Source: an uncultured Spirochaetota bacterium (GTDB taxonomy: Bacteria > Spirochaetota > Spirochaetia > SZUA-6 > Fen-1364). From it: a DNA stretch of 64,000 bases. Location of the stretch: assembly GCA_963734545.1 (NCBI GenBank), contig CAVTHO010000006.1:352001-416000 (forward strand), in the 5' to 3' direction. The notes beneath the pieces were generated by a model, which saw nothing but the letters and a program-made list of their open reading frames with translations, searched no databases and was not told the DNA's origin. Made by a program: the position numbers and the translations under genes. Each line of letters opens with the position of its first letter. Position 1 is the first letter of the stretch. Positions 4,433 to 24,869 of the stretch are shown one piece after another.

Positions 4433-5557
4433 ATGAAACCGCCGTTCGACGCCGGGAAGCTCGACCGGCTTATGGAGGAAGCCGGCCTCTCCCTGGTGCT
4501 TGCGCATACCCGGCACAACGTGCGGTACCTGTCGGGCGGGTACTACTACCATTTCCACGCCAACTTCACGCGCATGGGAAGAAGCCAGTACCTCCCATTC
4601 GTCGGGATCCCGAGGGGACGGATACAGGAGGCGTTCTATGTGGCTCGGGATGAGGAGCGCGGCCAGCTCGAGACCGAATCTCCCTGGTTTCCCACGCGCA
4701 TCGAGGCGGTCAGAGGCACGGTGACCGCGGCCGAAGGCGCCGTAAAAGGCCTGCGGCAGCTCGGCCTGACCCTGGCCGGATCGGAGTGGAGACCCCGTTC
4801 CTTCCCGCGGACGCCTGGCTCGCCCTGCGCGCCGAGCTCCCTCGGGTGGAGCTCGTCGATGCCACTCCCCTCCTGAACGAGCTGCGGGCCGTGAAGAGCG
4901 AAGCGGAGCTCGAGACAATGAGAAAGGCGTATGCCGGCGTCGCCGAGTCGATACAGGCCGCCTTTCGGAGCAGCGGTCCGGGCGACACGACACGGAAGAT
5001 CGCGCAGCGCGTCGAGCGGGAGATCGCCTCGCGGGACCTCTCCTTCCTGTTCGCGTTCGTGTGCGCCGGCCCGAGCTTCCTGCGTGCCCCGTCATCTGCC
5101 ACGTGGGATTCCGGACAGATCCTGCACATCGACGCGGGCGGCTCGCTGCAGGACTATATCGGCGATATCTGCCGCATGGGCTGCGCCGGGAAACCCGCGC
5201 CGCTGGCGAACGAGCTGTACGAGGCATGCATCGCCGTGCAGAACGAATGTGCGCGGCATGATCCGGGCAGGGGTGCCCTGTCGGGACGTCCTGGCGGCCG
5301 GAGAGCGCGCGTCGCGCGCATACGGCTTCTCCCGGTATGCGCGATTCGTCGTGCATTCGATCGGCATGGTTTCCTATGAGCAGCCCGAGTTCACTCCCGA
5401 CAATCCGCGGCCGCTGGAAGAGGGCATGGTGCTGTCGGTCGAGACTGATTTCCTCCACCCCGAGGTCGGGCACGTGAAGATAGAGGATGCCGTCGTGGTC
5501 CACGAATCAGGCTGCGAAGGCCTCGGGGATATCGGCAGGGAGTGGCAGATTGTCTGA
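4433..5557 (+). CDS. M24 (Xaa-Pro peptidase/creatinase fold) hydrolase, two frameshifts
   Basis: Creatinase_N-like HNVRYLSG, LRAVKSEAE, metal ligands IDAG..YIGDICR, HSIG, SVET and KIED spread over three overlapping ORFs. Confidence 0.85.
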
Positions 5558-5624
5558 CTGGGCGCTGCCAGGCAACCCATAACTCCAACCAGGCCCCGAA
5601 AATAGCCGCTATTTCCTTTTTTTC

Positions 5625-5687
5625 TTGACAGCGCTCTTCTAGCGGCCATATAATGCCGTAATATTACCGATATATCGCAAATATATC
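5625..5687 (+). promoter_or_regulatory. Sigma70-type promoter and probable GntR operator(s)
   Basis: TTGACA 5625-5630, 18 nt, TATAAT 5649-5654. Downstream palindromes GTAATATTAC 5658-5667 and CGATATATCG 5668-5677, plus repeated ATATATC 5681-5687. Confidence 0.75.
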
Positions 5688-5713
5688 AGAGCGTATGGAG
5701 GGTTCGCCAGACG

Positions 5714-6403
5714 ATGAGTGAACAGGGCATTGCTCAGGTCGAGGCTCCAGCAAACAATAAAAAGAGCAGGATCTACGAGCTTTTGAAGGAGCGCATCGTC
5801 AAGAATGAGCTGAAGCCCCAGGAATACCTGAACGAGCAGGTTATCGCCAGGGATCTTGGCGTCAGCAAGACTCCGGTCAGGGAGGCGCTCCAGAAACTGG
5901 AGCATGAGCGGCTGGTCGTCATCATCCCGAACAAGGGGACATTCGTCGCCAACGTCAGCATCGACAGGATCCGCGAAGTCTTCGAGATCAGGGAGATCCT
6001 CGAATGCGCCGCTGCGCGACTGGCGGCAAAGCTCCCCGCGAGGGAGCAGTTCGTTTCGATCCTCGACAGCCACCCCTCGTTCACGATCAGTGACGGAGCA
6101 GAGCTGCGCGAGCAGTTCCTGTCCGGATACCAGATTCACACCCGCATCGTCGAGGCCGCGGAGAACAGTTACCTCACGGATTACTACGAGAACATCCTCG
6201 CGCACATCGTCCAGGTGCGCGTCTTTTTCATCCGCCGGTTTGGGATGAGGCGCCTGCATGAGACCGTCGAAGAGCACCGCGTGATACTCAAGGCGATCGT
6301 CGATGGTGACGCGGAGAAGGCGGAGACAGCGATGCGCGACCATCTCAAGCGGTCCCTGGTGAACATCAACCAGCTCATGCTGGGAAGCGGGGGAGAGATA
6401 TGA
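5714..6403 (+). CDS. GntR/FadR (FCD) family transcriptional regulator
   Basis: wHTH LGVSKTPVREAL and FCD-type EHRVILKAI..GD..AE.AMRDHL. GGAGG RBS upstream. Confidence 0.95.
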   Translation: MSEQGIAQVEAPANNKKSRIYELLKERIVKNELKPQEYLNEQVIARDLGVSKTPVREALQKLEHERLVVIIPNKGTFVANVSIDRIREVFEIREILECAAARLAAKLPAREQFVSILDSHPSFTISDGAELREQFLSGYQIHTRIVEAAENSYLTDYYENILAHIVQVRVFFIRRFGMRRLHETVEEHRVILKAIVDGDAEKAETAMRDHLKRSLVNINQLMLGSGGEI

Positions 6404-7071
6404 TCCACGTTCGCAGGGAGACGCGCCGGCCCGACGCCGCGATCATCGAGGCTTTCCGCGAGCTGGCTGTTGCGACCGTCTATGAGGCTTCCGGTCGGAA
6501 AGGCTACATCGGGAACGCGGTCAGGCCGATCGCACCGGGAACCCGTATCTGCGGCCCGGCCTACACGGTCCAGTGCGCGCCGGGGGACAACCTGATGCTG
6601 CACAAGGCCCTGCAGCGCGCCGCGCCGGGTGACGTCCTTGTCGCGGCCGCCGGCGGGGCGTACGAGTTCGGCTATTGGGGAGCCCTGATGGCGTCCGCGG
6701 CGGTCGCGCGGAAGCTCGGCGGCCTGGCCATCGACGCATGCGTGCGCGACTCGGCCGAGATCCGGGACATGGGCTTCCCCTTGTTCTGCCGGGGGTTCTG
6801 CATCCGCGGGACCACGAAGGCCGTCCTGGGACTGATCAACTACCCGCTGAACTTCAGCCAGGCCACGATCTTCCCGGGCGATCTCGTGCTCGGTGACGAT
6901 GACGGCATGGTGGTCGTGCGGCTGGATGACTGCAAGGAGGTGCTGGAGAGCTCCTTGAAGAGGGTCAGCGCCGAGGAATCGAAGGTGAAGCAGCTGAAGG
7001 CCGGCGTATCGAGCGTCGAGCTGAACAGCCTCGACAAGGTGTTCGAGTCTCTCGGGCTCGGCGAGGAGTAA
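6400..7071 (+). CDS. RraA family HMG/CHA aldolase (4-carboxy-4-hydroxy-2-oxoadipate aldolase-like)
   Basis: ATVYEA, GPAYTV, GDNLMLH, YWGALM, IDACVRD, PGDLVLGDDDG. ATGA overlap with gntR. Confidence 0.9.
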   Translation: MIHVRRETRRPDAAIIEAFRELAVATVYEASGRKGYIGNAVRPIAPGTRICGPAYTVQCAPGDNLMLHKALQRAAPGDVLVAAAGGAYEFGYWGALMASAAVARKLGGLAIDACVRDSAEIRDMGFPLFCRGFCIRGTTKAVLGLINYPLNFSQATIFPGDLVLGDDDGMVVVRLDDCKEVLESSLKRVSAEESKVKQLKAGVSSVELNSLDKVFESLGLGEE

Positions 7072-7078
7072 GAACCGC

Positions 7079-8126
7079 ATGAGGGTGAGCGAGAAAGCGC
7101 TCCTGGACTCCACGCAGGAGATACTCGTCCGGCTGGGCGAGGATCAGGCGAACGCAGTGCTCGCTGCCGCGGCCCTCGTCGGTGCCGATATGCGGGGCGT
7201 CACCACGCACGGCGTGAACCTGCTGCGCCTGGTGTCACAGCGGGTGGAGGCGGGCATGCTCGCTCTTCCCACGCGCATTGAAACGCTGAAGGAGGATGCC
7301 GCCACCGCGATCCTGGACGGGAACAATGGGCTCGGGCAGGTTGCGGCATGCCGGGGCATCGGCCCTGAGCGCGGCGAAGGCGAAGCAGGCCGGCCTGGGC
7401 ATGGTGGTGGTGCGCAACACCAACAACCTGGGAGCCCTCGGCTACTACACCGCGCAGGCCGCTTCCCGAGACGGGGTCGTCGCAATCCTCATGACAAACG
7501 GGAACCCCTCCGTGGCGCCCTTCGGCAGCGCGGATCCGTTTTTCGGGACCAACCCTGTGTCCATCGCCATTCCCTCGGCAGGAGGCCGCCCCCTCGTGCT
7601 GGACATGTCGTCGAGCGTCGTGGCCCGGGGAAAGATCCGCGTCGCCGCCACCAGCGGTGAGAACATTCCATTGGGGTGGGCCTGCGACGAGAACGGCGAG
7701 CCCACGACAGATCCGAAGCGCGCGCTGAAAGGCTCCCTGCTCCCACTCGGCGGACCCAAGGGCTCGGGTCTCGCCATGATGATCGACATCCTCTCCGGGG
7801 TGCTCTCCGGCTCTTCGTATGGCCGCGGGCTGAAGAGCTTCCATGAGCTGGACGGGCCGACCGGCGTGGGGACCTGCGTCATCGCCATCGATATCGGCCG
7901 GTTCGTGGATCCGGGCGTCTTTGCGGAGACGATCGGAGCATACGTGCAGGACATCAAGGGACTGAGAAGGCGGTCCGGAATCGAAGAGATCCTTGTGCCC
8001 GGCGAGGTGGAGAGCCTCAAGGAAGAGGAGAACCGGCGCCTGGGGATCGAAGTTCCCGAACCGGTCGCGAAGAGCATGAACGAAATCCTCGCGAAGCTCG
8101 GCGCACGAGCGAGGATCGGCTCATGA
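7079..8126 (+). CDS. Ldh_2 family (malate/sulfolactate/ureidoglycolate-type) 2-hydroxyacid oxidoreductase, one frameshift near 7355
   Basis: ADMRGVTTHG, DGNNGLGQV, FGTNP, LDMSSS, GGPKGSGL, PGE motifs. Confidence 0.9.
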
Positions 8127-9858
8127 ACACGGTCATCCGCGTGAACACGCGCAGCCGGCAAGGTCACTTCGCACCCCGTCACCGCCGAGGAGACGAGGTG
8201 GGGCGGAAGGTCCTTCATCGCGCACCTGCTCCTGCGCGAGGTGCCGCCGACCTGCGAGCCCACCGGCCGGCACAACAAGCTCATCGTGGCTTCAGGGCTG
8301 CTCGCGGACACCGGCGTTACAACCACCGGACAGCTTTCCATTGGAGGGAAGAGCCCGCTCACCGGCGGAGTAAAAGAGTGCAACACCGGCGGCGCCGCGG
8401 GAAAGCGGCTTGCCCGGCTGGGCATCCGCGCCGTGGTGATCGAGGATACCCCGGCGGCACCGGCCACGGACGTCGTGGTGATCAGCGCGCGCGGATCGCA
8501 CCTGGAGCCCTTCCCCGAGCTGAAGGGGAAGCTCGTCGACGAGACGGTGGCGGCGCTGCGCGCGAAGTACGGCCGGACCGTCGGCATCCTCTGTATCGGC
8601 CCTGCCGGTGAGCTGATGATGTACGGCGCAGGGATCGCCTCTCCCGACAGTGACAGCGTGCAGATCAGGTACGCCGGCCGCGGCGGCCTGGGCGCGTTGA
8701 TGGGATCCAAAGGGGTCAAGGCCATCGTCGTCGATGACACGGACTCCACCTATCGGGCGGAGCCGCACGATCCCGAGCTGCTCACGCGCACATCCAGGTG
8801 GATGAATGACGCGCTCAAGGCTGATCCGAAAACCGAGAACCGTCACCTCTACGGCACGGATGCGATCCTCGCCCTGGCAAACGCCTCTGGCCTGCTGCCG
8901 ACGAGGAACTTCTCCAGCGGGAGCTTCGAAAAGGCGGACGATATCGCGGGCGAGCGGCTTCGCGCGGAGATCCTGGCGCGCGGCGGGGAGGGCAGGGCAG
9001 GCACCTCGTGCGTGCCTGGCTGCGTGATCCAGTGCTGCAACGTCTTTCCCGACAAGAGCGGACGGAAGACCGTCGCATCCATCCAGTACGAGAATATCTC
9101 CCTGCTCGGCTCCAACTGCGGCATCGGGAGCCTCGACGACATCGCCGAGATGAACCATCTCTGCAACCAGGTCGGTGTGGACGCCATCGAGACGGGCGCG
9201 GCAATCGGCGTGGCCATGGAAGCGGGGATCCTCCCGTTCGGGGACGCCGAGGCGGCCAAGGACCTGATCCGCCAGATCGGCAGCGGCACGTATCTCGGCC
9301 GCATTCTCGGGCACGGCGCGCTGCTCGCCGGCCGCGTGCTCGGCGTGCGCCGGATTCCCGTGATCAAGGGACAGGCCATTCCCGGCTACGATCCGCGGGC
9401 GCTCAAGGGAAACGGCGTCACCTACGTCACCTCCCCCATGGGCGCCGACCACACGGCGGGCAACGCGTTCGAGACGCTGAAGACCCTGGACCCGCTGAAG
9501 CCGGCCGGGCAGGTGGCGGCCTCCCGGAGACTTCAGGTCCGGGCAGCCTTGCTGGACACGCCTCGGGCTCTGTCTTTTCGTGCGGCCGCCGTTCGTCAAG
9601 AAGCCCGAGATGTTCGCCAACCTGCTCAACGGCCGGTATGGCTGGGACATGACGGTGCACGACGTGCTCTCCCTCGCCCACGAGGTGATCATGACCGAGC
9701 GTGAGTTCAACCGGCGCGCGGGCGCATCCGAGGAGTTCCACCCGATGCCGGAGTTCATGCAGGACGAGCCGTTGCCGCCGAACGACGTCGTCTTCGATGT
9801 GCCCATGGCGGAGATGCAGGCCCTGTGGGAAGGATACGCGCCCACGGACGAGTTCTAG
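8123..9858 (+). CDS. Aldehyde:ferredoxin oxidoreductase (W/Mo-pterin AOR family), two frameshifts
   Basis: KSPLTGGVKE, IGPAGE, AGRGGLGALMGSKGVKAI, CxxGCxxxC, DAIETG, GYDPR, GADH, EREFNRRAG. Confidence 0.92.
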
Positions 9859-9876
9859 GAGCGCGAAGGAGAAGGC

Positions 9877-10630
9877 ATGGAGCTTGAGGGGAACGTGGCG
9901 ATCGTGACGGGCGCGGGCAACGGGATTGGAGAGGCAATCGCCCGGAAGCTGTTCGCCGAGGGCGCCCGGGTGGCGCTGTGGGACATGAACTTCGAATCAG
10001 TCCAGAAGCTGGCAGCGCTGCTGGATCCGAAGGGAGACAAGGCGGCAGCCTTCAAGGTGAACGTGACCGTGGAAGCGGAAGTTCAGACCGGCGTGCGGCG
10101 AGACGGTAGAGCGGTTCGGCCGCATCGACATCCTGGTCAACAACGCCGGCATCTCCCGGCACAAGCACCATCGAGGAGATGAGCGTCGAGCTTTTCGAGC
10201 AGCGTGATCGCGGTGAACCTGACCGGGCCCTTCATCTGCTGCAAGGCCGTGGCGCCCGTGATGAAGAAGCAGAAGGGCGGGAAGATCGTCAACATCGCGT
10301 CACTCGGCGAGGCAGGACCGGGCGGCCCGGGCGTGGGCGTGAACTATGCGGCCTCGAAGGCGGGGCTGATCGGCATGACAAAGTGCCTGGCGCGCGAAGC
10401 TGGGCCGGAGCAACATCTACGTGAACGCCATCTGCCCCGGCCCCATCCTCACCGAGCAGACGAAGCAGTATTCGAAGGAAGTGTTCGCGTCGTGGAACGC
10501 GGGACGCGCGGTGCCGAAGGACGGGCTGCCCGAGGACGTGGCGGACGCGGTGGTCTACCTTTCCTCGCGGAGGGCGGACTGGGTGACAGGGGTCAGCCTC
10601 GACGTGAACGGCGGCATCTACATCAACTAG
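9877..10630 (+). CDS. Short-chain dehydrogenase/reductase (several frameshifts)
   Basis: TGAGNGIG, DILVNNAG (shifted frame), YAASK, VNAICPG, LDVNGG. Confidence 0.88.
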
Positions 10631-10642
10631 GACGGAGGAGCC

Positions 10643-11010
10643 ATGGCGAAGGTGAAGGTGGTCGACATCAAGAACGTGACCGGGGAGCGGAAGGGCCCCC
10701 GCCGCGCACCTCCTGGATCCTGGTCTCGGAGAAGACGGTGGGGTCGAAGAACCTCGCCATGGGCGTGAACGAGACCGACCCGGGCAGCATGGTGCCGGAG
10801 CACAAGCACGACACCGAGGAGGAGGTGATGTTCTTCATCTCCGGCAAGGGGAAGTTCGTCACCGAGGACGAGGAGATCCCCCTCGGCCCGGGCATCTGCG
10901 TCTACAACCCTCCCGGGGGGAAGCACAAGATCGTGAACACCGGCACCGAGGTGCTGAAGTTCGTGTGGATCTACGCGCCGCAGCTGCCGTCGCACCGCGT
11001 GCAGCAGTGA
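10643..11010 (+). CDS. Monocupin domain protein (one frameshift near 10700)
   Basis: GGAGG RBS then MAKVKVVDIKNV. Cupin metal motif HxH..EE and PPGGKH. Confidence 0.85.
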
Positions 11011-11035
11011 CAGCGGGAAAAAGGAGAGTGAGGTC

Positions 11036-12001
11036 ATGAGCGAGTGGAAGTTCCCGCCGGGCGGCGGGCACATGGAGAAGCCTTCGAAGATCTACTACCA
11101 GACGATGACGAAGAAGGACGTCGAGGAGCGCCTGAAGGTGAACGACATTCTCCTCATCCCCTTCGCCTCCACCGAGAACCACGGCGACGCGCAGCCCTAC
11201 GGCGAGGACGGCTTCATCGTCACCCGGATGTGCGAGATGATCGCGCAGAAGACCGGCTGCACCGTGGCCGAGCCGCTCTGGTACGCATCGCACCCCTTCG
11301 CCCACCTCGGGCAGTCGGGCACCGTCCCCATCCCCGACGACCTGACCTCCGCGATAGTGCGCTCGATCGTCTCGGGCTACTGGAACGCGGGGTTCCGCAA
11401 GCAGATCCTGATGAGCAGCCACGGGCAGGAGTACATCATCCCATCCGCCATCCAGGAGTGGGCCAAGAAGTACCAGGTGCCCGCCGTGATCATCTTCCTG
11501 GACGTGATGAAGATCATGGGCGACGCGCTGAAGGACAAGGCGCACGGCGGCCCCTTCGAGACCCCCTTCCGCCACGGCGACGAGGCGGAGAACTCCATCT
11601 GCCTGGCGCTCTTCCCGGAGTTCATCCAGATGGAGAACTGCGTCGACACCAAGACATGGGGCTTCCTGCCCGAGGGCCACATCGACAAGGGCGGGGACAT
11701 CTACAACTACCCCATCCCCGGCCAGAGCCACGTCGGCGGCGGCGGTGTCGAGTTCGCCGTGTACCCGGAAGGCGTGCTGGGCAAGCCGTCGCTCGCCAAG
11801 GCCGAGAAGGCCTACGAGGCCATCGAGAACTACCTGAACTACGTGGTGAAGCTGCACAACGACATCCGGGCGAAGTTCCCTCCGGGGGTGCTTCCGGAGG
11901 CCAAGTACATGACCCAGAGGAGCGAGGAGGAGATCGATCTCCTGCTCAAGGGGCCGGACCGGGGAGGCAGGCACATCTACACGGTCGCCTGGCCGTCCTG
12001 A
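11036..12001 (+). CDS. iolN: Creatininase-fold hydrolase resembling 3-dehydro-scyllo-inosose hydrolase IolN
   Basis: STENHG, YGED, SSHGQE, HGDEAE motifs. The N-terminus WKFPPGGGHMEKPSKIYYQTM resembles the IolN subfamily (recalled, not searched). Confidence 0.75.
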   Translation: MSEWKFPPGGGHMEKPSKIYYQTMTKKDVEERLKVNDILLIPFASTENHGDAQPYGEDGFIVTRMCEMIAQKTGCTVAEPLWYASHPFAHLGQSGTVPIPDDLTSAIVRSIVSGYWNAGFRKQILMSSHGQEYIIPSAIQEWAKKYQVPAVIIFLDVMKIMGDALKDKAHGGPFETPFRHGDEAENSICLALFPEFIQMENCVDTKTWGFLPEGHIDKGGDIYNYPIPGQSHVGGGGVEFAVYPEGVLGKPSLAKAEKAYEAIENYLNYVVKLHNDIRAKFPPGVLPEAKYMTQRSEEEIDLLLKGPDRGGRHIYTVAWPS

Positions 12002-12123
12002 GCCGCGCCCGGGAGCCGGGAAGGAGGTGGCGAGGTGAAGAAAGTCTTTCCACGTGCCGGAGAGGCAGTTCTGATTATCGGCGCGTAGCGCCGAGCTCGA
12101 AGAGTTTCCGGAAGGAGAACGAA

Positions 12124-13152
12124 ATGAGAAAGATCCTGTTGTTCGTGCTCGTGGCTCTCATGGCGGCGCCCCTGGCAATGGCCCAGCAAAAGTGTACGAG
12201 CTCAAGCTGGCGCATGCCGACTCGACCGACATCAGCGTGTCGCGAAAACACGCCCAGGCGTTGCCTTCGCGGACCTCGTCAACACGAGGAGCGGCGGGAG
12301 AATCAGCGTCAAGGTGTACGGCGGCGGGGCCCTCGGCGCCGAACGCGAGTACGTCGAGTCCATCAAGGCCGGGCACGGTGGAAGCGGGAATCGCCTCGGG
12401 CGTCATTGCCAACTTCTTCCCCTCGGCGATGGTCACCGACATCCCGTTCCTGTTCCCCTCCGGCGAGATAGCCTGGAAGGTCCTGGACGGTCCCTTCGGA
12501 GACAGGCTGCGCGCCGCGTTCCTGAAGGAGACGGGGATGCGCTGCCTGACGTTCGCCGAGGTCGGGTTCCGCAACTTCACGAACAATGTCAGGCCCATCA
12601 GGACGCCCGCGGACATGAAGGGCCTGAAGATCCGGGTGCAGGAGACGCCCCTTTACATCACCTTGATCAAGGCCCTCGGGGCGAGCCCGACGCCCATCGC
12701 CTTCACCGAGCTGTACACCTCGCTGCAGACAAAGGTCGTGGACGGTGAAGAGAACCCGATCGCCGACGATCCTCATGTCGAAGTTCGCCGAGGTGCAGAA
12801 GTACTGCACCCTGGACGGCCACAACTACGGCGTGGACTACTTCGTGATCAACGAGAAGTTCTACCAGAGCCTCCCGCCGGATCTGCAGTACATCGTGCTC
12901 TCAAGCGCTCGGATCAGCGCTGCGGTGGGCCGCGGCGTCCAGCAGCTCGTGGCCGCGGAGGGAGTCCGGGCGCTCCAGGATGCGGGCATGGAAGTCTATG
13001 TACCAACCACGGCGGAGCTTGAGATGTTCAAGCAGGCCACCCAGCAGCCGGTCATCGATTGGCTGAAGACAAAGATCGACCCGAAGCTCATCGCGGAAAT
13101 GCTGCAGGTGGTCAAGGACACCGTTGCGCAGCAGAACAGGGACCTGAAGTAG
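12124..13152 (+). CDS. dctP: TRAP transporter substrate-binding protein DctP (several frameshifts)
   Basis: Signal peptide MRKILLFVLVALMAAPLAMA, GFRNFTN, DMKGLKIRV (carboxylate-binding Arg), ELYTSLQTKVVDGEENP. Confidence 0.9.
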
Positions 13153-13166
13153 AGAGGACAGAAAAT

Positions 13167-13194
13167 GGAAGCGGGACCGCAAGGTCCCGCTTCC
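13167..13194 (+). other. Perfect 12-bp stem-loop with GCAA tetraloop between dctP and dctQ
   Basis: GGAAGCGGGACC-GCAA-GGTCCCGCTTCC with no U-tract. Likely an mRNA stabiliser or partial terminator. Confidence 0.7.
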
Positions 13195-13216
13195 TCCTGA
13201 AGGGAGGAACGGCGGA

Positions 13217-13702
13217 ATGAAGCTCATCGACAGGATCATGCGCGGGATGGAGAATGTCATCATGTGGGCGGCGTACGTCCTGCTTGTCCTGATGGTGATC
13301 AACACGGCCGGCGGCGTGTTCTTCCGATACGTTCTTCACAACGCCATCCCGTGGACGGAAGAGCTGGGACGCTACATGATGATCTACGTCGGCTTCTTCG
13401 GCTGCATCCTGGCCATGGGTACAGACTCCCACGTGGGAGTCCAAATGTTCACCGCTCTGTTTCGCCCGGCAGTCAAGCGCGTCTTTCACATCATCGCCCG
13501 GCTCGTGGTGGCCGTCTTCCTCATCGTCATCCTCATGAAGTGCGGAGAGCAGCTGAGCGCGCTGCGAATCCAGAGGTCGAGCGCCATGGAGATTCCCATG
13601 GTTGTTCCTTATTTTGCCGTGACCTTCGGCATGGCCCTGATGCTCCTCGAGGACCTCGTGCACCTGCTGCGCCTCTTCATCAACAAGGAAGGAACACCAT
13701 GA
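13217..13702 (+). CDS. dctQ: TRAP small permease DctQ
   Basis: VFFRYV, PWTEELGRY, four TM segments. Confidence 0.93.
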   Translation: MKLIDRIMRGMENVIMWAAYVLLVLMVINTAGGVFFRYVLHNAIPWTEELGRYMMIYVGFFGCILAMGTDSHVGVQMFTALFRPAVKRVFHIIARLVVAVFLIVILMKCGEQLSALRIQRSSAMEIPMVVPYFAVTFGMALMLLEDLVHLLRLFINKEGTP

Positions 13703-14983
13703 CACTGTGGCTCGCGATTGGAGCGTTCGTCCTCTGCCTGCTCATCGGCGTGCCCATCGCCTACAGTCTGGGAACAGCGAGTGTCATCTACCTGGTGTTG
13801 AAGGGAGTATCACTCGGGCTGATTGCGCAGCGCCTGTTCACCGGCCTGGACAGCTTTGCCTTCATGGCCATTCCCTTCTTCATCCTGGCAGGAGAGCTGA
13901 TGAACAGCTCCGGCATCACCAAGCGACTGGTCAACTTCGCCTCGCTGTTCGTCGGCCGGCTGAAGGGCGGGCTCGGTCATGTGACCATCCTCACCTCGAT
14001 GCTCTTCGGCGGGGTCACCGGTTCGGCCATCGCGGATGCCTCCGCGGTCGGGGCAATGATGATCCCCGGCATGAAGCAGGAAGGCTTTGACGAGGATTTC
14101 TCCGCGGGCCTGGTGGCCTCGGCCTCGGTCATGGGCCCCATCATACCGCCGAGCATCCCCTTCGTGGTCTTCGCCCTGCTCAGCAGCACGTCGGTGGCAG
14201 CTCTTTTCCTTGGGGGCATCGTCCCGGGCGTCATGATCGCGCTCGGGCTCATGATCGTCACCTACTACATCTCCGGCAAAAGGAAGTACCCGCGCGCGAC
14301 CAAGTGGCCTACGCTCAAGCAGGCCGGCCGTGGCCATCCTGAACGGCATTGTGCCTCTCCTGATGCCGCTCATCATCCTCGGCGGCATCCTTGGCGGCAT
14401 CTTCACCGCGACCGAGGCGTCTGCAGTTGCCGTCGTCTACGCCATGGTGATCGGTTTCATCGTGTACAGGAACCTCGACATGAAGTCGTTCCTCGCTGCC
14501 CTCCTCACCACGGCAAAGACAACGGGCGTGGTCTTTCTGGTCATCGCCTGCTCGAACGTCTTCAACTGGATGCTGGTCGTGGAGCAGGCCCCGCAGGCCA
14601 TGGCGGCTTTCGTGGGGGGCATCATCCATAACAAGGCGCTCCTGCTCCTGGCCATCAATATCGTGCTGCTCATCGTCGGGACCTTCATGGAAGGCACCGC
14701 GGCAATGATCATCCTGGTCCCGATCCTCTTGAAGATCACCGCCGTCTACGGCATTCACCCCGTGTTCCTCGGCGTGGTCGTCGTGCTCAACCTCATGATC
14801 GGGCTGCTCACGCCGCCGGTGGGCTTGTGCCTCTACGTCGTCTGCGGCATGGCGAAGCTCTCCCTGGAGAGAGTGGTCAGGGCGGTCGTCCCGTTCCTGA
14901 TCGCGGAGATCATCGTCTTGTTTCTCATTACATACATAGAGCCGCTGTCCATGTTCCTGCCCAGGGCGTTCGGGTACTTGTAG
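13699..14983 (+). CDS. dctM: TRAP large permease DctM (one frameshift near 14325)
   Basis: AIPFFILAGELM, TGSAIAD, IIPPSIP, GIFTATEA, LLTPPVG. Confidence 0.93.
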
Positions 14984-15006
14984 CAGCGACCGGAAGGAGC
15001 ACCGCA

Positions 15007-16039
15007 GTGAAAGCGATTGTGAAATACGAGGACAAGCCCGGCGCCGTGAAGGTGATGGATCGCCCGAAGCCCCGCGTCGGGGCCCGTGATGTGCTCATTG
15101 CCATCAAGGCCACCGGGATCTGCTACACGGACATGTCCATCATCAAGGGCGAGTACAAGGGCCGCAAGCCGGTCCCCATCCCGGTGATCCTCGGACACGA
15201 GGGATCCGGGACCGTGGCGGAGACAGGCCGGGAGGTGAGCGGCTACCGGGCCGGCGAGAGAGTGGCCTTCGAGGCGCTGAACGGCTGCGGCCACTGCCTC
15301 AACTGCAGGAACGGCTTCAAGAACATGTGCACGGACTGGACGCATGTCGGCATCACCTGCGACGGAACTTTTGCCGAGTACCTCGCGCTCCCCGACGTCA
15401 TGGTGCACAAGCTGCCTGACAGCGTGTCCTTCGCGGATGCCGCGGTGCTCGAGCCCCTCAGCCTTGTCGTGCGCTCGCTGGAGCACGTTCAACCCGTCCC
15501 GGGGGAGACGGCGGTGGTCATCGGCCCCGGGTCGGTCGGGCTTCTCCACCTCCAGGCACTGAAGGCTTCAGGGGTGGACAAGGTCATCGTCATCGGGATC
15601 GAAAAGGACAGGCAGAGGTTCGAGATTGCCAGAGTCCCTCGGCGCGGACGTGGTCGTGTACAGCGACAAGGAGGATCCTGTGAAGGCGGTGATGGACGCG
15701 ACAGGCGGCCTGGGGGCTGACGTCGTGATCGAGACCGCGAACCACCCCGTGGTGTGGGATTACCTTCTCGACATCGTGGCAGCCCGTGGACGGATATCGA
15801 CCTTCGGCCTGTATCCCGAGGCGAAGATCAAGCCGCTTGCGCTGCTGCGCAAGGGCGCGACGATCTACGGGGATGTCGCGCTCCTGTCCAGGCACTTCGT
15901 GCGCGCCATCAAGTGGCTGGAGACGAAGAAGGTCTCCGGGGAGAAGCTCATCACGAAGCGCTTTGCATTGGACCAGATGGAGGAGGCGTTCAAGGTCTTC
16001 CGTGCCGGGGAGACGATCAAGGTCCTCTTCGAGTTGTAG
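15007..16039 (+). CDS. Zn-dependent MDR alcohol/polyol dehydrogenase (one frameshift near 15635)
   Basis: GICYTD, GHE, structural Zn CGHCLNC..C, EPL, GPGSVG. Confidence 0.9.
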
Positions 16040-16066
16040 GTCGGCTGCAAACCGCGCGGAGCAATA

Positions 16067-17440
16067 ATGAAGAAGATCAGGTCGATCAATCCCTTCTCCC
16101 GGGAAGTGAACGGCGAATTCGATTCACTGTCAGCGCCGCGGGCCGCGAGAGAGATCGAGGCGTCGCGGACGGCGTTCCGCGCCTGGCGGGCCCTGAGCGC
16201 GCGCGAGCGGGGGAAGTGCATAATCCGCCTGGGCGAGGTCCTGATGGCGGGACAGCGAGGCTACGCGGAAACGATCACCCGGGAGATGGGCAAGCCCATC
16301 AGGCAGTCGCTCCAGGAAATCGAGCGGTGCGCGAATATCGCGGCATATTTCGGGAAGAACGCCGAGGAGCTGACCCGGGACGAGACGGTGTCCACGGCTT
16401 TCAAGAAAAGCTACGTGTCCTTCGAGCCCCTGGGCGTGATACTTGCGATCATGCCCTGGAACTTCCCGGTGATACAGGCGCTCAGGTTTGCCATTCCCAC
16501 CATGACGGCGGGGAATGTCGTCGCGCTGAAACCCGCTTCGAATGTGCCCCTGTGTGGGATGGCCATCGAGGGCATGTTCGCCGAGGCCGGATTCCCGCGC
16601 GGCGCTTTCAAGACGCTTCTCATGGACTCCGCCACCGCGCTGGGCCTCATACGGGACGACCTGGTGGACGGCGTCTCGCTCACCGGAAGCATCAGCGCGG
16701 GCTCGGCAGTCGGCGCCGCGGCCGGGGCGGGCATCAAGACGGCGGTGCTGGAGCTGGGCGGATCCGATCCCTTCCTTGTCCTGGACGACGTCAATGTGGA
16801 CGCGGTCGCTTCCGCCGCCGTCCAGGCGCGGTTCGTCAACGCCGGCCAGAGCTGCGTTGCGGCCAAGCGTTTCATCGTCATGGAAAAGGTTGTCGGGGAG
16901 TTCTCCGAGCGCTTCGTCCACCACCTGCAGGCAATGAAGGTGGGCGATCCCATGGATGAGTCGACGGACATCGGGCCGCTCGCGAGGCCCGAATCACGCG
17001 AGGAGCTCGAACGCCAGGTCGAGGATGCGCGCGCAAAAGGGGGAACCGTGATACTCGGTCCCCTCCCGCCTGCCGGCAGGGCCTTCTTCCGTCCGGCCGT
17101 CATCCTGAACGCGACCCCGGACATGGCGGTTGCGCGCGAGGAGACATTCGGTCCCATTGCCCCGATTTTCGCCGTCAGGGACGAAGAGGAGATGGTCGCC
17201 ATGGCCAACTCGACCAAGTTCGGGCTGGGAGCCACGATCTGGAGCGGGGACATTGCCAGGGCCGAGCAGCTTGCCGCGAGAATCGACTCGGGATTCGTCG
17301 GCATCAATCAACCGGTGAAATCTGATCCCCGTCTGCCCTTCGGAGGCACAAAGAGCTCAGGTATCGGGCGGGAGCTCTCGCACTATGGGGTGAGGCAGTT
17401 CACAAACATAAAGACCGTCGTCGTCCAGAATCCGAGGTAG
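16067..17440 (+). CDS. NAD(P)-dependent aldehyde dehydrogenase (succinate-semialdehyde dehydrogenase-like)
   Basis: PWNFP, LTGS, LELGGSDP, AGQSC, EETFGP, PFGGTKSSG.GRE. Confidence 0.93.
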   Translation: MKKIRSINPFSREVNGEFDSLSAPRAAREIEASRTAFRAWRALSARERGKCIIRLGEVLMAGQRGYAETITREMGKPIRQSLQEIERCANIAAYFGKNAEELTRDETVSTAFKKSYVSFEPLGVILAIMPWNFPVIQALRFAIPTMTAGNVVALKPASNVPLCGMAIEGMFAEAGFPRGAFKTLLMDSATALGLIRDDLVDGVSLTGSISAGSAVGAAAGAGIKTAVLELGGSDPFLVLDDVNVDAVASAAVQARFVNAGQSCVAAKRFIVMEKVVGEFSERFVHHLQAMKVGDPMDESTDIGPLARPESREELERQVEDARAKGGTVILGPLPPAGRAFFRPAVILNATPDMAVAREETFGPIAPIFAVRDEEEMVAMANSTKFGLGATIWSGDIARAEQLAARIDSGFVGINQPVKSDPRLPFGGTKSSGIGRELSHYGVRQFTNIKTVVVQNPR

Positions 17441-17500
17441 GCCCCCCTACACCAACAGGCGGTTTCGTGCCATCCTGTGACCGCACAGAGAGGCAGAGGA

Positions 17501-17954
17501 GTGGCGAAGCACATCGCGGTCATTCACGGCCCGAACCTGAACATGCTGGGCAAACGCGAAGTCGGCATCTACGGCGGAAAGTCGATGGAGGACATCAACG
17601 CCGATGTCGCCGCGGAAGCCGGCAGGCTCGGCGTGACCGTGGAGTTCTATCAGAACAACGGCGAAGGTGAGCTGGTCAGCTTCATCCAGCAGTGCCGGGG
17701 CAGGGTCGAACGGGATCCTGTTGAACGCCGGCGCCTACACCCACTACTCGGTGGCCCTGCGGGACGCCATCTCCGCGGCGCAGGTCCCCACGGTGGAGGC
17801 GCACATCTCGAACATCTACAAGAGGGAGAAGTTCCGCCACACGTCGGTGATCGCGCCGGTGTGCATCGGTCAGATCTGCGGTTTCGGCCCGTACAGCTAC
17901 ATCCTGGGGCTTCGCGCGCTGATCGAGGACCGGCTCGACCCCTGGCTGGCGTGA
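17501..17954 (+). CDS. aroQ: Type II 3-dehydroquinate dehydratase, copy 1 (one frameshift near 17705)
   Basis: [37 protein letters not shown]. Confidence 0.92.
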
Positions 17955-17965
17955 GGAAGATACTA

Positions 17966-18411
17966 TTGAAGAAGAAGAGCTTCCTGGTCATATCGGGACC
18001 CAACCTGAACCTCCTGGGGACGCGCAAGACCTCGATCTACGGTGAGGGCTCGCTGGAGGACATCCACAAGGGCCTGAAGCTCGCGCGCCGAGGAGCTGAA
18101 CGTGCAGGTGGACTGCCGGCAGTTCAACAGCGAGGGGGCGATCATCGACTCCCTGCAGGAGGCGCCCGGGCATTTCGACGGGGTGATCATCAACGCCGGG
18201 GCCCTCGCGCACTACAGCTACGCGCTTGCGCAGCGCCATCGGGTCCACGCTCCTTCCGTGCGTGGAGGTGTTCATCTCCAACGTCCACGCGCGCGAGGAG
18301 TTCCGGCACACCTCCGTGATCGCGCCGGTCTGCGTGGGGGTCATCGGGGGATTCGGCAAGAAGAGCTACCTGCTGGCCCTGGAAGCATTGGCAAACCTGA
18401 GTGAAGCCTGA
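17966..18411 (+). CDS. aroQ: Type II 3-dehydroquinate dehydratase paralogue, copy 2, catalytic His replaced by Phe (two frameshifts)
   Basis: [44 protein letters not shown]. Confidence 0.85.
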
Positions 18412-18426
18412 GGTGAGGCAGCGGGC

Positions 18427-19258
18427 ATGAGCATACTGTGGGGCAAGCAGGTCTCGGAGCTGTCCGGCGCGGCACAGGCGCGCGCGCAGGGCTTCGATTT
18501 CGTGCAGCCGCTGGGAACCCTCGTGGCTGACATGAGCGACCAGGAGTTCCGCGCGGAGAAGGCCCGGATCGCTGACAGCGGCATCCCCCTTGCCGTCTTC
18601 GCAGTTCCTCTTCCTGCGGAGGTGCGTGTGACGGAGCGCGGCTTCAACCTGTATGCGTGGACCGAGCATCTGAAAAAGGCGGTGCCCCGGATGGCCGAGC
18701 TGGGCTGCAGGAAGCTGCTCTGGAGCAACGGCCGGGCACGAGTCCTCCCCGAGGAGGGCAATGTGGCCGGCCTGAAGGCAGCAGGTGGCCCAGTTCCTGT
18801 TCCTGCTCTGCGATGTGGCCGCGAACGCCGGGATCTCCGTTCTCGTCGAGCCGCTGGATCCGCGGCGCACGAACTTCCTGAACTCCATGAAGGAAATCGG
18901 CGAGTTCCTCCACCGGGTGGGAAAGGAGAACCTGGCGTCCATGATCAGCCTGAGGGAGCTGGATGCCATCGGCCTGCCGATCTCCCGGCTCGGCGAGTTC
19001 CGACACCTGATCCGGTACGTGCAGATGGAAAACCCCCTGTCTCGGGAGGGAGCCCGCGCCTGCCCGCGTCGGTCGGACGGCTTCGACTATCGTCCATTCC
19101 TGCGCGCGCTGCAGGATATCGGATACGGCGCCGAGATCGGGCTTCCTGTCGACGCGGATGCGGATACGCTCACGTACTGCCGGGAGCTGGCGGAACAGAC
19201 GTCAGCCGGGTTCCATCGCCGCGACGCCTCTCTTGAGCGTCCCCGCTCCCCCGTGTAG
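18427..19258 (+). CDS. Xylose isomerase-like TIM barrel (sugar isomerase/epimerase family), degenerate (one frameshift near 18783)
   Basis: GFDFV, VLVEPL..TNFLNS, DYRPFLRALQDIGY. Confidence 0.7.
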
Positions 19259-19267
19259 TATCCCCGA

Positions 19268-20561
19268 ATGGAAAATCCCCCCGCAGCACAGCGCGCTGAA
19301 CTTGCAGAGGGTGGGCGCCTCGTCACGCCTCTGGCAGCCAGACGCATCACCCGGGTCCTCTTTGCGGCTCAATGCCTGGCCTCGGCTGCTTTCATCGCCA
19401 CATCAACTGTATCCGCCATCGCGGGAATGGCGCTGAGCGGCCAGAGGAGCCTGGCAGGGGTGCCTGCCGCGGCGTCCACTCTTGCGGGATCGGGCGCTGC
19501 CTTCCTCTGGGGTCTGCTCATGGATCGAATGGGCAGGCGGCCGGCCCTTGCGCTGGGCCTGCTCTGCGGCGCAGTGGGATCTGCGGTGTGCATCTGGGGG
19601 ATCACGGCAGGCTCCTTCCTGGTACTTGTCGGCGGCATGATGCTCATAGGAGTGGCGAACGCGGCAGTCGCCTTGAGTCGATTCGTGGCAGCGGAAGTGA
19701 ACATGCCCGAGCGACGAGGCCGGGCCGTGTCCACCGTCGTGCTGGGTGGCACAGTGGGGGCCATCGGAGGTCCCCTTCTGGTGACGCCCGCTGGCCACAT
19801 CGCCATGCAGGCCGGCACAGGCGATCTTGCCGGCGCCTTCGGTGCCGCGGTGATTCTGCTCCTGGTGGCAGGCGCGGTGATAGCCGCGGCGCTCCGTCCC
19901 GAGCCGCTGACACTTGCAGCGGGCGGCGTGAAACAGGCGGGGGCGGCCGGCGAACGCGCCCAGTCCGTCCAGCGGCGCGCCATTTCCGAGATCTTCCGTC
20001 TTCCGGGTGCCGCCGCCGCCGTTGCCGCCATGGTGTTCAGCCAGGTGGTGATGGTGGGCCTCATGGTGATCACTTCCCTCTATATGAAGGACATGCACCA
20101 CGGCCTGGGGGACATCTCCGTCGTGTTCTCCGCGCACACCATCGGGATGTATGCATTCTCCCTGATCTCCGGGCAGGCTCATCGACCGGTGGGGCAGGCG
20201 CCAGGTGATTCTCCTGGGCGCCTCTATACTCCTGGTGGCGTGCCTCACCGCGCCCCTGACAGGAGATACGATTCCGCTTTCCATCTCCCTCCTCCTGCTT
20301 GGCCTGGGCTGGAACTTCTGCTTCGTGGGAGGATCCACTCTGCTCGCAGACCACTTGAGCCCGGCGGAGCGAGGGCGCACGCAAGGCTTCAACGATCTGC
20401 TGGTGGGGCTGGCGGCTGCCGTGGGCAGCCTGGGCAGCGGCCTCGTCTCGGCGAGATTCGGCTACGCCGGCGTCGGGCTGGCGGGAGCCGTGCTCGCGGT
20501 GGCGCCGTTCGTGTTTGTGGCGCGTTGGGTGAGGCAGGGGGCCCGGGGTTCGGCAGCGTGA
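19268..20561 (+). CDS. MFS transporter (one frameshift near 20175)
   Basis: LMDRMGRRP motif A, about 12 hydrophobic segments, GLGWNF, ERGRTQGFND. Confidence 0.9.
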
Positions 20562-20623
20562 CAGGGGCGGGGAGCCGCCCGTCCGCATTCGCCTCCCTCG
20601 CGGATCTCACCCATGTTTAGAGC

Positions 20624-23561: not shown

Positions 23562-24869
23562 CTACCGGGCCGGAAACTCCAGCCTGTGCGTGCGCTCTAT
23601 GGCCTCGCGCGCGTCGTCCGCAACCCGCGCCTGCTCCGCGTACTCCGGCCACCTCTTCACCGCGGCGCGAACCTCTTCCACGATGGATTCGGCGCGTCCC
23701 CGTTTCATGGAGGTGCTCTTTGCGCAGGCGCGAAAATCCTCCCGCGTGAATCCGTCCCGCTTGCCGTTCATGGTCATCTGGTGGGTTGCGGTCCAGTCTC
23801 CGGCAGGATTGAAGCTGTAGGTCACATCGAAGGCGGGCGCGAGAGACCATCGCCCATCCTTGTCCATGAGGAACGCGATGTTCTTGGCGTGATCGTCCTG
23901 GTTGCGTGCCACGATGTTGAATGCCATGCGGCGGAACTGCTCCTCCACCGTCTCCATGGACAGGTTCAACCGGCGGATGATGAGCAGCGCCTGCTCGTAC
24001 CCGTATGCGCCCGGCTGGTTGAAGTCGAAGTGGGCAAGGGCGCACAACGACTGCATGTGGATCTTCTCTCCACCCTTCCGCCTGTCAAACCGACGGCTCA
24101 TGAAATGACGCCGGCCGTTTTCTTCGAGCAGCCTGCAGTCGCTCATCTGCACGCCTGCTGTCTTTGCCATGAGAGAATAGGCGTACTCGATGGCGCCGTA
24201 GCCCTTTGGATCCTCGAGCTCCTTGTCCTTGTTTCCCGAGACGCCATCGAACTTCAACAGCCAGTATTCGAATCCCGCTCCGGCCGCAATCTGGCCTGAG
24301 CGGACTTCATCTGTATCAGGGTTCCAGGCGATGACTGCCTTGGCCCGCGCGCCGCCCGCAGAGGTGCCGACACGGAGAATGTCCTGGAGGGCCTTCTTTC
24401 TCCTGTCGCTGGAGAAAGCGCCTTTGATGTTCCCGCGTTGATTGAGCACCTCCGAAGCCAGCTCCACCAGCGCGTCAATCTGGATCATGCGGGCGCGCTG
24501 CGGTCTGGGGCCGGTTGCAGGCAGGTACTCCAGCGCACCCATGCCTCTCGTTCCGGTATAGCAGAGCCTTTCCACCGCGTTGAAACTCTCAGGCGTTCTC
24601 CCCTGCGTGGCAAGCCATGCGTTGATCAGCGCATCTCCAAACCTGTCGGGCAGCGAATCCGCCAGGAGGCCGGGCAGACCGTGAAAGGTCCGCTGCGGCA
24701 GGTCCGGAAAAACATGGACCCGGTCTGAGAGTGGAAGGGTGATGGGCGACACCTGGATTCCACTTCGCGCAAATGCAGGATCGTACTGGAAGGCTGCGAT
24801 CCTTGCATCGTCCTCCAATGAAACCGCCCCGATGGTTCGTCCCCAGAGCCTCACCTTCGCGAGGGTCAC
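23562..24869 (-). CDS. hipA: HipA family Ser/Thr kinase toxin
   Basis: Couple_hipA N-terminus (DSLPDRFG), SAGGARAK, WLLKFD, NQDDHAKN, LAPAFD. Confidence 0.95.
   Translation of the reverse strand: MTLAKVRLWGRTIGAVSLEDDARIAAFQYDPAFARSGIQVSPITLPLSDRVHVFPDLPQRTFHGLPGLLADSLPDRFGDALINAWLATQGRTPESFNAVERLCYTGTRGMGALEYLPATGPRPQRARMIQIDALVELASEVLNQRGNIKGAFSSDRRKKALQDILRVGTSAGGARAKAVIAWNPDTDEVRSGQIAAGAGFEYWLLKFDGVSGNKDKELEDPKGYGAIEYAYSLMAKTAGVQMSDCRLLEENGRRHFMSRRFDRRKGGEKIHMQSLCALAHFDFNQPGAYGYEQALLIIRRLNLSMETVEEQFRRMAFNIVARNQDDHAKNIAFLMDKDGRWSLAPAFDVTYSFNPAGDWTATHQMTMNGKRDGFTREDFRACAKSTSMKRGRAESIVEEVRAAVKRWPEYAEQARVADDAREAIERTHRLEFPAR

Follow-up and report, generated by a model that had tools for sequence, protein, structure and literature searches.

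A candidate oxygen-independent route for quinate and shikimate around an IolN-type hydrolase in a gene cluster of an uncultured spirochaete and other bacteria

Among the described systems closest to the locus considered here is the inositol pathway of Thermotoga maritima, which comprises IolG, IolM, IolN and IolO (the names follow the NCBIfam models NF041097, NF041098 and NF041099) and was reportedly described by Rodionova et al. in 2013. In this pathway a cyclitol is oxidised twice to a 1,3-diketone, and IolN opens the ring without oxygen to give an acid with a CO-CH2OH end. The locus is a run of genes at positions 5625-19258 of a 64,000-nucleotide stretch of DNA (the window; contig CAVTHO010000006.1 of assembly GCA_963734545.1) from an uncultured Spirochaetota bacterium. 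Its IolN passes the same hidden Markov model but falls into a separate clade, and the cluster type carries tripartite ATP-independent periplasmic (TRAP) or tripartite tricarboxylate (TTT) transporters rather than an ATP-binding cassette (ABC) transporter for sugars. IolG is missing from the window, the medium-chain dehydrogenase (MDR) scores below the IolM cut-off and the TIM barrel far below that of IolO. The lower branch of the Thermotoga route, IolO/UxaB/UxaA/KdgK/KdgA, is replaced by a cupin, an aldehyde:ferredoxin oxidoreductase (AOR), an Ldh2-family dehydrogenase and an RraA-type aldolase, and dehydroquinase and AroE genes have been recruited, unlike in the Thermotoga-type IolN loci described below.

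Three other pathways resemble parts of the cluster. The lower pathways of protocatechuate 4,5-cleavage and gallate degradation (LigK/GalC/PcmE) also use a class II aldolase of the RraA fold, with the same products as proposed here, pyruvate and oxaloacetate. There the substrate 4-carboxy-4-hydroxy-2-oxoadipate (CHA) derives from aromatic compounds, whereas here it would come from a non-aromatic precursor by hydrolysis and dehydrogenations; a search of the genome for LigB found no LigAB/GalA-type dioxygenase, and the aldolase scores below the cut-off of the LigK model TIGR02798. In classical quinate and shikimate catabolism (qui/qsu), quinate dehydrogenase, dehydroquinase and 3-dehydroshikimate dehydratase lead to protocatechuate, whose ring is cleaved by dioxygenases. 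Both have the same presumed substrates and a dehydroquinase with a catabolic role, and some loci of the present cluster also share the AroE/YdiB-type dehydrogenase. The route proposed here would have neither aromatisation nor oxygen-dependent cleavage, since the ring would be opened by hydrolysis at the stage of a 3,5-diketone, and the hosts of the cluster carry tungsten-type AOR and are labelled as anaerobic lineages. The anaerobic phloroglucinol pathway, with phloroglucinol reductase and dihydrophloroglucinol cyclohydrolase, likewise opens a six-membered ring without oxygen through a cyclic 1,3-dicarbonyl and hydrolytic C-C cleavage, although its substrate is different and is reached by reduction of an aromatic ring, and other enzymes follow downstream (PMC10470551). 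The words IolN, creatininase, inositol and quinate do not occur in that paper.

Six-frame translation together with Pfam and NCBIfam searches recovered every gene that a first-pass annotation of the sequence had listed, all on the + strand between 5625 and 19258 and separated by gaps of 0-100 nt. We read the run as a single catabolic operon under the control of GntR. Its substrate would be a carboxylated cyclitol, most likely quinate, and dehydroquinase would let shikimate in; each step is inferred from the genes, and we hold the reading to be about evenly poised between right and wrong. The broader proposal, namely that a dedicated IolN clade serves a widespread oxygen-independent, non-aromatising route from quinate and shikimate to CHA in fermenters and syntrophs that live in anoxic wetlands, in sediments and in the hot subsurface, falls slightly short of an even chance.

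In the proposed route the TRAP system DctPQM would import quinate, and a short-chain dehydrogenase (SDR) and the Zn-dependent MDR would oxidise its C3 and C5 hydroxyls to 3,5-didehydroquinate, the only 1,3-diketone that quinate can form (C3, C5). The IolN-type hydrolase would then cleave the C3-C4 bond, yielding HOOC-CH2-C(OH)(COOH)-CH2-CO-CH2OH, and the cupin would isomerise the ketol end from CO-CH2OH to CHOH-CHO. AOR would oxidise the aldehyde to a carboxylate with reduction of ferredoxin, a step that an aldehyde dehydrogenase (ALDH) may also carry out in this genus. Ldh2 would oxidise the resulting 2-hydroxy acid to CHA, which the RraA-type aldolase would split into pyruvate and oxaloacetate. 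Shikimate would enter through AroQa, which would interconvert 3-dehydroshikimate and 3-dehydroquinate. None of these steps would require O2. The balance is C7H12O6 + 2 H2O -> pyruvate + oxaloacetate + 8 [H]. To reach it takes four oxidations and a single hydrolysis, isomerisation and aldol cleavage each, without any dehydratase; this matches the conserved core of the cluster exactly. The Ldh2 step would yield exactly CHA, and the enzyme most similar to the aldolase acts on just this compound.

The core recurs well outside the window. An alignment of IolN was scanned against one genome per species, which gave 252 relatives; the best 80 of the 252 loci were kept, 40 of them with full 10-kb flanks. 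Genes were scored as present by tblastn at E<=1e-10, and SDR was counted at >=45% identity. RraA is present in 65/80 loci (40/40 of those with full flanks), Ldh2 in 65/80 (39/40), the cupin in 73/80 (38/40), an MDR of any kind in 66/80 (39/40), the TRAP subunit DctM in 60/80 (37/40), AOR in 63/80 (34/40), SDR in 58/80 (32/40) and GntR in 46/80 (29/40). The co-occurrence of the IolN-like protein with RraA, Ldh2 and AOR, for which the first-pass annotation had proposed a survey, extends to 80 loci from other genomes, and the arrangement is far beyond chance. Two dehydrogenases are always found near IolN, as SDR and MDR, as two MDRs, or as Gfo/Idh/MocA genes (the latter in 18 loci). The loci carry seven phylum labels: Spirochaetota (33), Thermodesulfobacteriota (14), Bacillota (12), Atribacterota (7), Methylomirabilota (5), Myxococcota (3) and Chloroflexota (1), with 5 unclassified. 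Two isolates, Thermovorax subterraneus DSM 21563 and Fervidicola ferrireducens Y170, have the cluster in the order RraA-Ldh2-AOR-cupin-DctQMP-MDR-IolN-MDR-TIM. A genome of the same genus as the window (G007) has an intact syntenic copy, M24-GntR-RraA-Ldh2-AOR-SDR-cupin-IolN-(Liv-type ABC transporter)-MDR-ALDH, followed by a gene for a methyl-accepting chemotaxis protein (MCP) and, about 2 kb further on, by the aroQ pair. No second copy of the cluster was found elsewhere in the window's genome.

The intact IolN gene (11036-12001, +) encodes a hydrolase of the creatininase fold (PF02633, E 7e-40) that scores 491.1 bits against NF041098 (cut-off 245) over model positions 1-307. Residues E47, H49, D58, H129, H180 and E185, which are invariant in the IolN alignment, align with the metal ligands and catalytic His of creatininase, and Q131 occupies the position of creatininase Glu122. 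The window does not show the inositol-type context of IolG, IolM and IolO with a sugar transporter; TRAP, RraA, Ldh2 and AOR genes stand there instead. Two other genomes of the genus contain an IolN paralogue that is 50% identical to the window's (type B). In one of them (L019, G006:C1) its neighbours are the binding protein of a sugar-type ABC system (Peripla_BP_4), an MDR of 434 aa, DUF6282, a cupin and GntR. These genes, with a cupin of 202 aa, make up the type-B context (L019-L021, L104-L151).

The type-B protein was used as a control query. It retrieved 48 loci, including Thermotoga and Pseudothermotoga records, and in these 48 loci RraA, TRAP DctM, AroQ, AroD and AroE were each found 0 times, while an IolM-like MDR is present in 34/48 (17/17 of those with full flanks). 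The type-A set, to which the window belongs, and the type-B set are defined by the query that found them and not by their context. Of the 122 IolN sequences placed in a FastTree tree, the 78 of type A fall together on one side of a branch whose SH-like support is 100. The residues that separate the clades (A/B) are K18/G, Q93/M, D101/E, S127/N, F154/N, D156/N and M161/I; S127 lies two residues before the conserved His129. NF041098 scores both clades alike, at 491-546 bits (window 491, type-B L019 521, Pseudothermotoga 538). The equivalog name IolN thus covers two clades of different context and probably over-annotates one of them. In public records, type-A proteins go by no other names than 'creatinine amidohydrolase', 'creatininase family protein' or '3-dehydro-scyllo-inosose hydrolase'. 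A third context was seen in Anaerolineae records (L129-L133 and L149), where an IolN 58-65% identical to the window's is accompanied by AOR (47-50%), a cupin (42-44%) and sometimes Ldh2 (32-34%); RraA, TRAP and dehydroquinase genes were not found in these loci.

The link to dehydroquinate and dehydroshikimate, which the first-pass annotation had based on the aroQ genes of the window, is conserved and is made through three gene families in type-A loci. A type II dehydroquinase (AroQ) is encoded by 23/80 loci and by 16/40 of those with full flanks, in most cases by two conserved tandem genes. AroD, the type I enzyme, is not homologous to it and is present in 3/80 (L034, L062, L083), and in L034 its gene lies directly between IolN and DctP (PF01487, E 4e-47). 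AroE/YdiB-family genes are present in 9/80, as in L025, with the order IolN-MDR-aroQ-AroE-like-AOR. Taken together, AroQ, AroD or AroE is found in 28/80 loci, or 20/40 with full flanks; the loci that have none of them are compatible with the use of quinate only and equally with another substrate. The window's genome has no type II dehydroquinases other than the two in the window. No Shikimate_dh_N gene was found in the window's cluster; the only copy in the genome is an AroD-AroE fusion on contig 9, likely a biosynthetic enzyme. Among 41 related genomes, which are kin and several of them incomplete, so that the counts are descriptive, AroQ was matched in only four (G000, G007, G022 and G024), and all three genomes with a type-A IolN (G000, G007 and G022) are among these four. 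In the fourth, G024, in which a search with the window's protein found no type-A IolN, a truncated aroQb (residues 47-133 only) is followed by an intact TIM barrel gene (L152, 12641-13753, on G024:C65), with no other cluster gene within 12.6 kb upstream or within the ~0.9 kb downstream to the contig end.

The two dehydroquinase-like genes of the window, aroQa (~17501-17954, +, frameshift at 17708) and aroQb (~17966-18411, +, frameshifts near 18070-18100 and 18224), both match PF01220, and their intact orthologues L097a and L097b score 204 and 175.7 bits against TIGR01088 (cut-off 169.85). Quantum mechanics/molecular mechanics calculations on the dehydratase assign to Asp88' the deprotonation of Tyr24, and to His101 the role of proton donor for the loss of the C1 hydroxyl (PMC6011038). 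Arg19, Tyr24, Asp88' and His101 are all present in each of the 18 a-type sequences, out of 19, that span these columns and in the aroQa of the window. In the b-type sequences (L036, L037, L040-L042, L048, L054-L056, L064, L069, L074, L093 and L097) Asp88 is Ser in 14/14, while His101 has given way to Phe in 13/14 and to Thr in 1/14; Ser88 and Phe101 also stand in the aroQb of the window. Lys replaces Glu20, while Arg19, Tyr24, His81, Arg108 and Arg112 are kept. Because Asp88 and His101 are replaced, AroQb is probably not a dehydratase, and the role of dehydratase or hydratase once given to the second aroQ is unlikely. AroQb may be a pseudo-dehydroquinase, or it may have taken on another enzymatic function that is new.

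The aroQb gene is always followed by a xylose-isomerase-like TIM barrel, TIM2 (18427-19258, +, PF01261, frameshift near 18770). Single-sequence and profile comparisons of TIM2 with the PDB gave weak and similar scores to ketose 3-epimerases, IolI, IolO and AsbF. Against the IolO model the window's protein scores 21.7 bits and its orthologues 35.6-36.8 (cut-off 300), and the ESM Atlas offers generic names only. TIM2 is therefore described here as a candidate epimerase/isomerase or dehydratase. A TIM barrel is present in 27/80 loci (18/40 with full flanks), and the aroQ-aroQ-TIM triad of some loci is placed upstream or encoded on the opposite strand. The TIM barrel had been considered, beside the cupin, as the isomerase of the core; it belongs rather to the aroQa-aroQb-TIM module, and the core does without it. 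The cupin, which is present in nearly all full-flank loci, is the better candidate. As a long shot, AroQb and TIM2 might tie gallate or 3,5-didehydroshikimate to the route, since 3,5-didehydroquinate has the composition of gallate plus water.

The remaining enzymes of the run can be described one by one. The RraA-family class II aldolase (6400-7071, +, intact, PF03737) scores 200.7 bits against NF006731, 'CHA aldolase/oxaloacetate decarboxylase' (cut-off 179), and its orthologue in G007 likewise scores above NF006731 and below TIGR02798. Its best PDB match is the CHA/HMG aldolase 3NOJ (E 2e-48), with R116-D117 aligned to R123-D124, of which Arg123 is catalytic and Asp124 a metal ligand. On these sequence comparisons the aldolase is closest to CHA aldolase. 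The first-pass annotation had remarked that the window has no dioxygenase to supply CHA; this holds for the genome as well, as no LigB (PF02900) match was found in the window or in the whole assembly (89% complete), and no LigI/LigJ-type genes were found in the cluster. The Ldh2-family 2-hydroxyacid dehydrogenase (7079-8126, +, PF02615, one frameshift near 7320-7360) has a G007 orthologue nearest to sulfolactate and malate dehydrogenases (2X06, 1V9N). The tungsten-type AOR (8123-9858, +, frameshifts near 8125-8155 and 9560) matches PF02730 (E 5e-48) and PF01314 (E 1e-50), with 9MQX and 1AOR as the nearest structures. The SDR (9877-10630, +, several frameshifts) was delimited by tblastn with the G007 SDR. 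The small Cupin_2 protein (~10660-11010, +, PF07883) shows HxH...E and PxGxxH, the motifs of a metal-binding cupin. The Zn-dependent MDR (~15007-16039, +, PF08240, frameshift near 15600) has a G007 orthologue that scores 204 bits against the IolM model (cut-off 450), near its score as Tdh; the window's partial MDR scores 140.8. The intact NAD(P)-dependent ALDH (16067-17440, +, PF00171) is 73% identical to the G007 copy. It had been counted as a general member of the pathway, but is genus-specific, occurring in 4/80 loci (3/40 with full flanks), and is possibly a tungsten-independent back-up for AOR.

The transporter genes encode the TRAP solute-binding protein DctP (12124-13152, +, frameshifts near 12374 and 12762, delimited by tblastn with L097 DctP), the small membrane subunit DctQ (13217-13702, +, intact, by tblastn) and the large subunit DctM (13699-14983, +, frameshift near 14322, by tblastn). 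The L097 orthologue of DctP scores 222 against TIGR00787 (cut-off 175). Beside the TRAP systems of the full-flank loci, TctA (TTT) is found in 7/80 type-A loci and a Liv-type ABC transporter in G007. The transporter is thus almost always of a carboxylate type, which points to a carboxylate as the substrate. The solved TRAP binding proteins nearest to the DctP orthologue (4P9K/4PAK and 4NQ8) do not reveal the ligand, nor do the nearest PDB relatives of the Liv-type binding protein of G007.

Several findings weigh against quinate as the substrate and against the route as drawn. One half of the full-flank loci (20/40) carry neither a dehydroquinase nor an AroE-type gene in their 10-kb flanks, and AOR is absent from 6/40. 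The aldolase reaches 186 bits against TIGR02798, the stricter LigK model with a cut-off of 304.5, and has Ala at the position of 3NOJ Asp102. Neither the MDR nor the SDR is recognised by a model of quinate dehydrogenase, and the MDR stays under the IolM cut-off. The solved relatives of DctP bind small hydroxy acids, and no TRAP protein is known to us to bind quinate. The two clades score alike on the NCBIfam IolN model, so that specificity rests on context and a few clade-specific residues. The proposed 3,5-didehydroquinate should, on chemical grounds and from what is known of gallate biosynthesis, tend to dehydrate and aromatise; therefore its hydrolysis would have to be rapid. Finally, about 14 frameshifts, part of which were checked against reads, break the operon in this assembly.

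Some of these points would be accommodated if the same enzyme logic acted on another carboxylated cyclitol or hydroaromatic acid, or if the steps had another order or regiochemistry so that CHA is not the substrate of the aldolase; in that case dehydroquinase and AroE would provide no more than a side entry. The transporters indicate just a carboxylate, the accessory genes vary (Gfo/Idh/MocA in 18 loci, an Asp/Glu racemase in 10, VOC in 9, M24 in 15 to 18), and the low LigK score and the loci without dehydroquinase would cause no difficulty. We nevertheless consider such a substrate unlikely, though it is the most serious of the alternatives: no other carboxylated cyclitols are nearly as common in nature as quinate and shikimate, three families specific to dehydroquinate or shikimate have been recruited into the cluster, and the carbon and redox bookkeeping from quinate to CHA uses exactly the conserved enzymes and no dehydratase. 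A variant of inositol catabolism, in which IolM-like dehydrogenases and IolN lead to 5-keto-L-gluconate as in Thermotoga and cupin, AOR, Ldh2 and RraA replace IolO/UxaB/UxaA/KdgK/KdgA, is rather improbable. The IolN does pass the equivalog model at 491 bits, the MDR is as like IolM as Tdh, the TIM barrels weakly resemble IolO and IolI, and the Gfo/Idh/MocA genes of 18/80 loci belong to the IolG family. Such a variant, however, would lack the dehydratase for the 3-deoxy position that an RraA-type pyruvate aldolase needs and leaves the enrichment of dehydroquinase and AroE unexplained; its transporters would be TRAP or TTT, whereas type-B loci have the Peripla_BP_4 sugar ABC system, and RraA occurs 0/48 times in the clade that holds the Thermotogota sequences.

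The cluster might also consist of two neighbouring, independent modules, with aroQa-aroQb-TIM leading from quinate or shikimate to protocatechuate, the TIM barrel being a 3-dehydroshikimate dehydratase (cf. AsbF/QuiC), and an unrelated IolN/RraA module beside it. The profile match of TIM2 to AsbF (3DX5) at E 8e-5, in the same weak range as the epimerases, the aroQb-TIM2 remnant of G024 with no IolN cluster nearby, and the displaced or inverted triads of some loci would agree with this. Yet in L025 and L034 a dehydroquinase is embedded among core genes without TIM2, and 3/3 of the related genomes with type-A IolN (among the 41) also have AroQ. The 60-nt gap before aroQa (17441-17500), which the first-pass annotation had named as a possible independent start of the aroQ genes, holds no promoter-like or terminator-like site, and repeated co-location would still imply a shared substrate. 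Two separate modules are about as improbable as the inositol variant. The least probable of the alternatives is that the operon is decaying into true pseudogenes and does not work in this genome. It draws on the roughly 14 frame changes in 13.6 kb, only some of which are among the 12 listed of 37 indel places; on the other side, short-read contigs of four runs have one base fewer at 11 sites, three of which are independently mapped junctions, and other genes of the window are frameshifted too, a pattern of long-read indel errors. A quinate/shikimate operon remains the best available interpretation. Its conserved core, the dehydroquinate link through three recruited families, the control clade, the synteny and the negative search for LigB all strengthen the route sketched in the first-pass annotation, while the roles given there to ALDH, the second aroQ and the TIM barrel need revision; the claim is upheld in part, and we see its chance of being correct as even.

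The frameshifts, which had been remarked on before, were mapped by tblastn with intact orthologues. They affect Ldh2, AOR (2), SDR (at least 2), DctP (2), DctM, MDR, aroQa, aroQb (2), TIM and the N-terminus of the cupin, while GntR, RraA, IolN, DctQ and ALDH are unbroken. Contigs of four short-read runs from wetland metagenomes (X1-X4) were aligned to 5600-19300; they come from related organisms, 92-99+% alike and not necessarily of the same strain as the window. At the 12 listed of 37 indel places the short-read contigs have one base fewer at 10166, 10203, 10305, 10308, 10326, 10691, 10696, 12374, 12762, 17708 and 18224, and one extra base at 17496. Positions 12762, 17708 and 18224 are frame junctions that tblastn had mapped independently; the junctions of Ldh2, AOR, DctM, MDR and TIM are not among the listed places. 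Because the short-read contigs lack the extra bases at several frameshift sites, most of the frameshifts are probably indel errors of the assembly (10 contigs, 89% completeness) and not a sign of gene decay. Such errors appear to extend across the window, since a LuxR-type gene (421-3373) and a gene for a major facilitator superfamily (MFS) transporter (19268-20620, +, PF07690), both outside the run, are also split.

The run begins with a sigma-70-like promoter, TTGACA-18 nt-TATAAT (5625-5654, +), a 12/12 match to the consensus rather than a mapped start; in 16.7 kb, 2 promoter-like sites were seen against 1.8 expected. Operator-like palindromes start just 3' of the -10 box. The candidate GntR operator (5658-5689, +) is made up of GTAATATTAC and CGATATATCG, followed 11 bp on by a degenerate copy. 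GTAATATTAC occurs once in the window (0.04 expected), and CGATATATCG or TGATATATCA is also found 5' of gntR in L054, L055, L068, L074, L087, L094, L095 and L097, the copies in these eight loci often being paired 11 bp apart. It is plausible that the palindrome, a consensus-type match and not a mapped site, is the operator of the cluster's GntR/FCD regulator, whose intact gene (5714-6403, +, PF00392 and PF07729) follows. A 12-bp GC-rich hairpin in the dctP-dctQ spacer (13167-13194, with no strand assigned) may stabilise the transcript of the binding protein.

An M24 creatinase/prolidase-like gene (4433-5557, +, PF00557; 47% identity to the G007 M24 by tblastn) sits 5' of the promoter. It is present in 15/80 loci (15 to 18 by the count used) and 10/40 with full flanks, these 10 being all of the Spirochaetota type, and is given here as a candidate accessory neighbour with no role assigned. 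Further upstream are a ThiF gene on the - strand and the frameshifted LuxR-type gene (AAA_16 and GerE). The MFS gene on the 3' side occurs in 0/80 loci and is outside the conserved cluster; it is followed by an MCP gene on the - strand, an NmrA-like gene and a gene for a HipA-like toxin-antitoxin kinase (23562-24869, - strand). A chemoreceptor linked to the cluster was considered and rejected, as the MCPs of the window and of G007 are not orthologous and share 32% identity over the signalling domain only. Loci of the Spirochaetota type (L031, L036, L047, L054, L068, L093, L095, L097 and L100) have further conserved neighbours to which no role is assigned, namely a VOC/glyoxalase-like protein (9 loci), an Asp/Glu racemase-family protein (10) and an unannotated 224-aa protein (12), as well as a second TIM barrel (TIM1) beside a second type of MDR. 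In Fervidicola ferrireducens (L075, 13325-16906) the genes Carboxyl_trans, OAD_gamma and OAD_beta of a Na+-translocating decarboxylase lie directly 3' of the cluster; a link to the proposed oxaloacetate product is possible.

The operon of the window is a mosaic. Its IolN is 91-97% identical at the protein level to that of loci labelled NC10, Syntrophales and some Spirochaetota, whose RraA, Ldh2 and AOR are only 43-67% identical; the DNA identity of the IolN-containing stretch to these loci is 84-91%. Conversely, the loci closest in RraA, Ldh2 and AOR (64-81%) have an IolN that is only 63-68% identical. These protein and DNA identities suggest that IolN alone was replaced by recombination or transfer.

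Few plant acids are as abundant as quinate and shikimate, which occur free or in chlorogenic acids. The bacterial routes known so far turn them into the aromatic protocatechuate, the ring of which is then opened with O2; to our knowledge, their mineralisation by strict anaerobes has not been established. Fermenters are said, in work by Brune and Schink from 1992, to use hydroaromatic acids without aromatic intermediates. In the literature covered, which leaves aside most subscription journals, nothing was found that links quinate or shikimate with IolN, creatininase-fold hydrolases or this gene set. What would be new here is the joining of IolN-type ring hydrolysis to a CHA-aldolase end, both parts being of known kinds. 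If the route is correct, it would be a complete oxygen-free pathway for quinate and shikimate, one that a few enzymes would suffice to test, it would account for the old reports of fermenters using hydroaromatics, and it would reach without O2 an intermediate, CHA, that aerobes reach with dioxygenases. Because the IolN equivalog annotation lumps two clades of different context, the substrate may be another one for many of the proteins that at present bear the name 3-dehydro-scyllo-inosose hydrolase. Relatives abound in the metagenomes of peat, wetlands and sediments, with 1053 protein clusters at E<=1e-50, and the combination of type-A IolN, RraA aldolase and Ldh2 would then serve as a marker set for the route in these environments.

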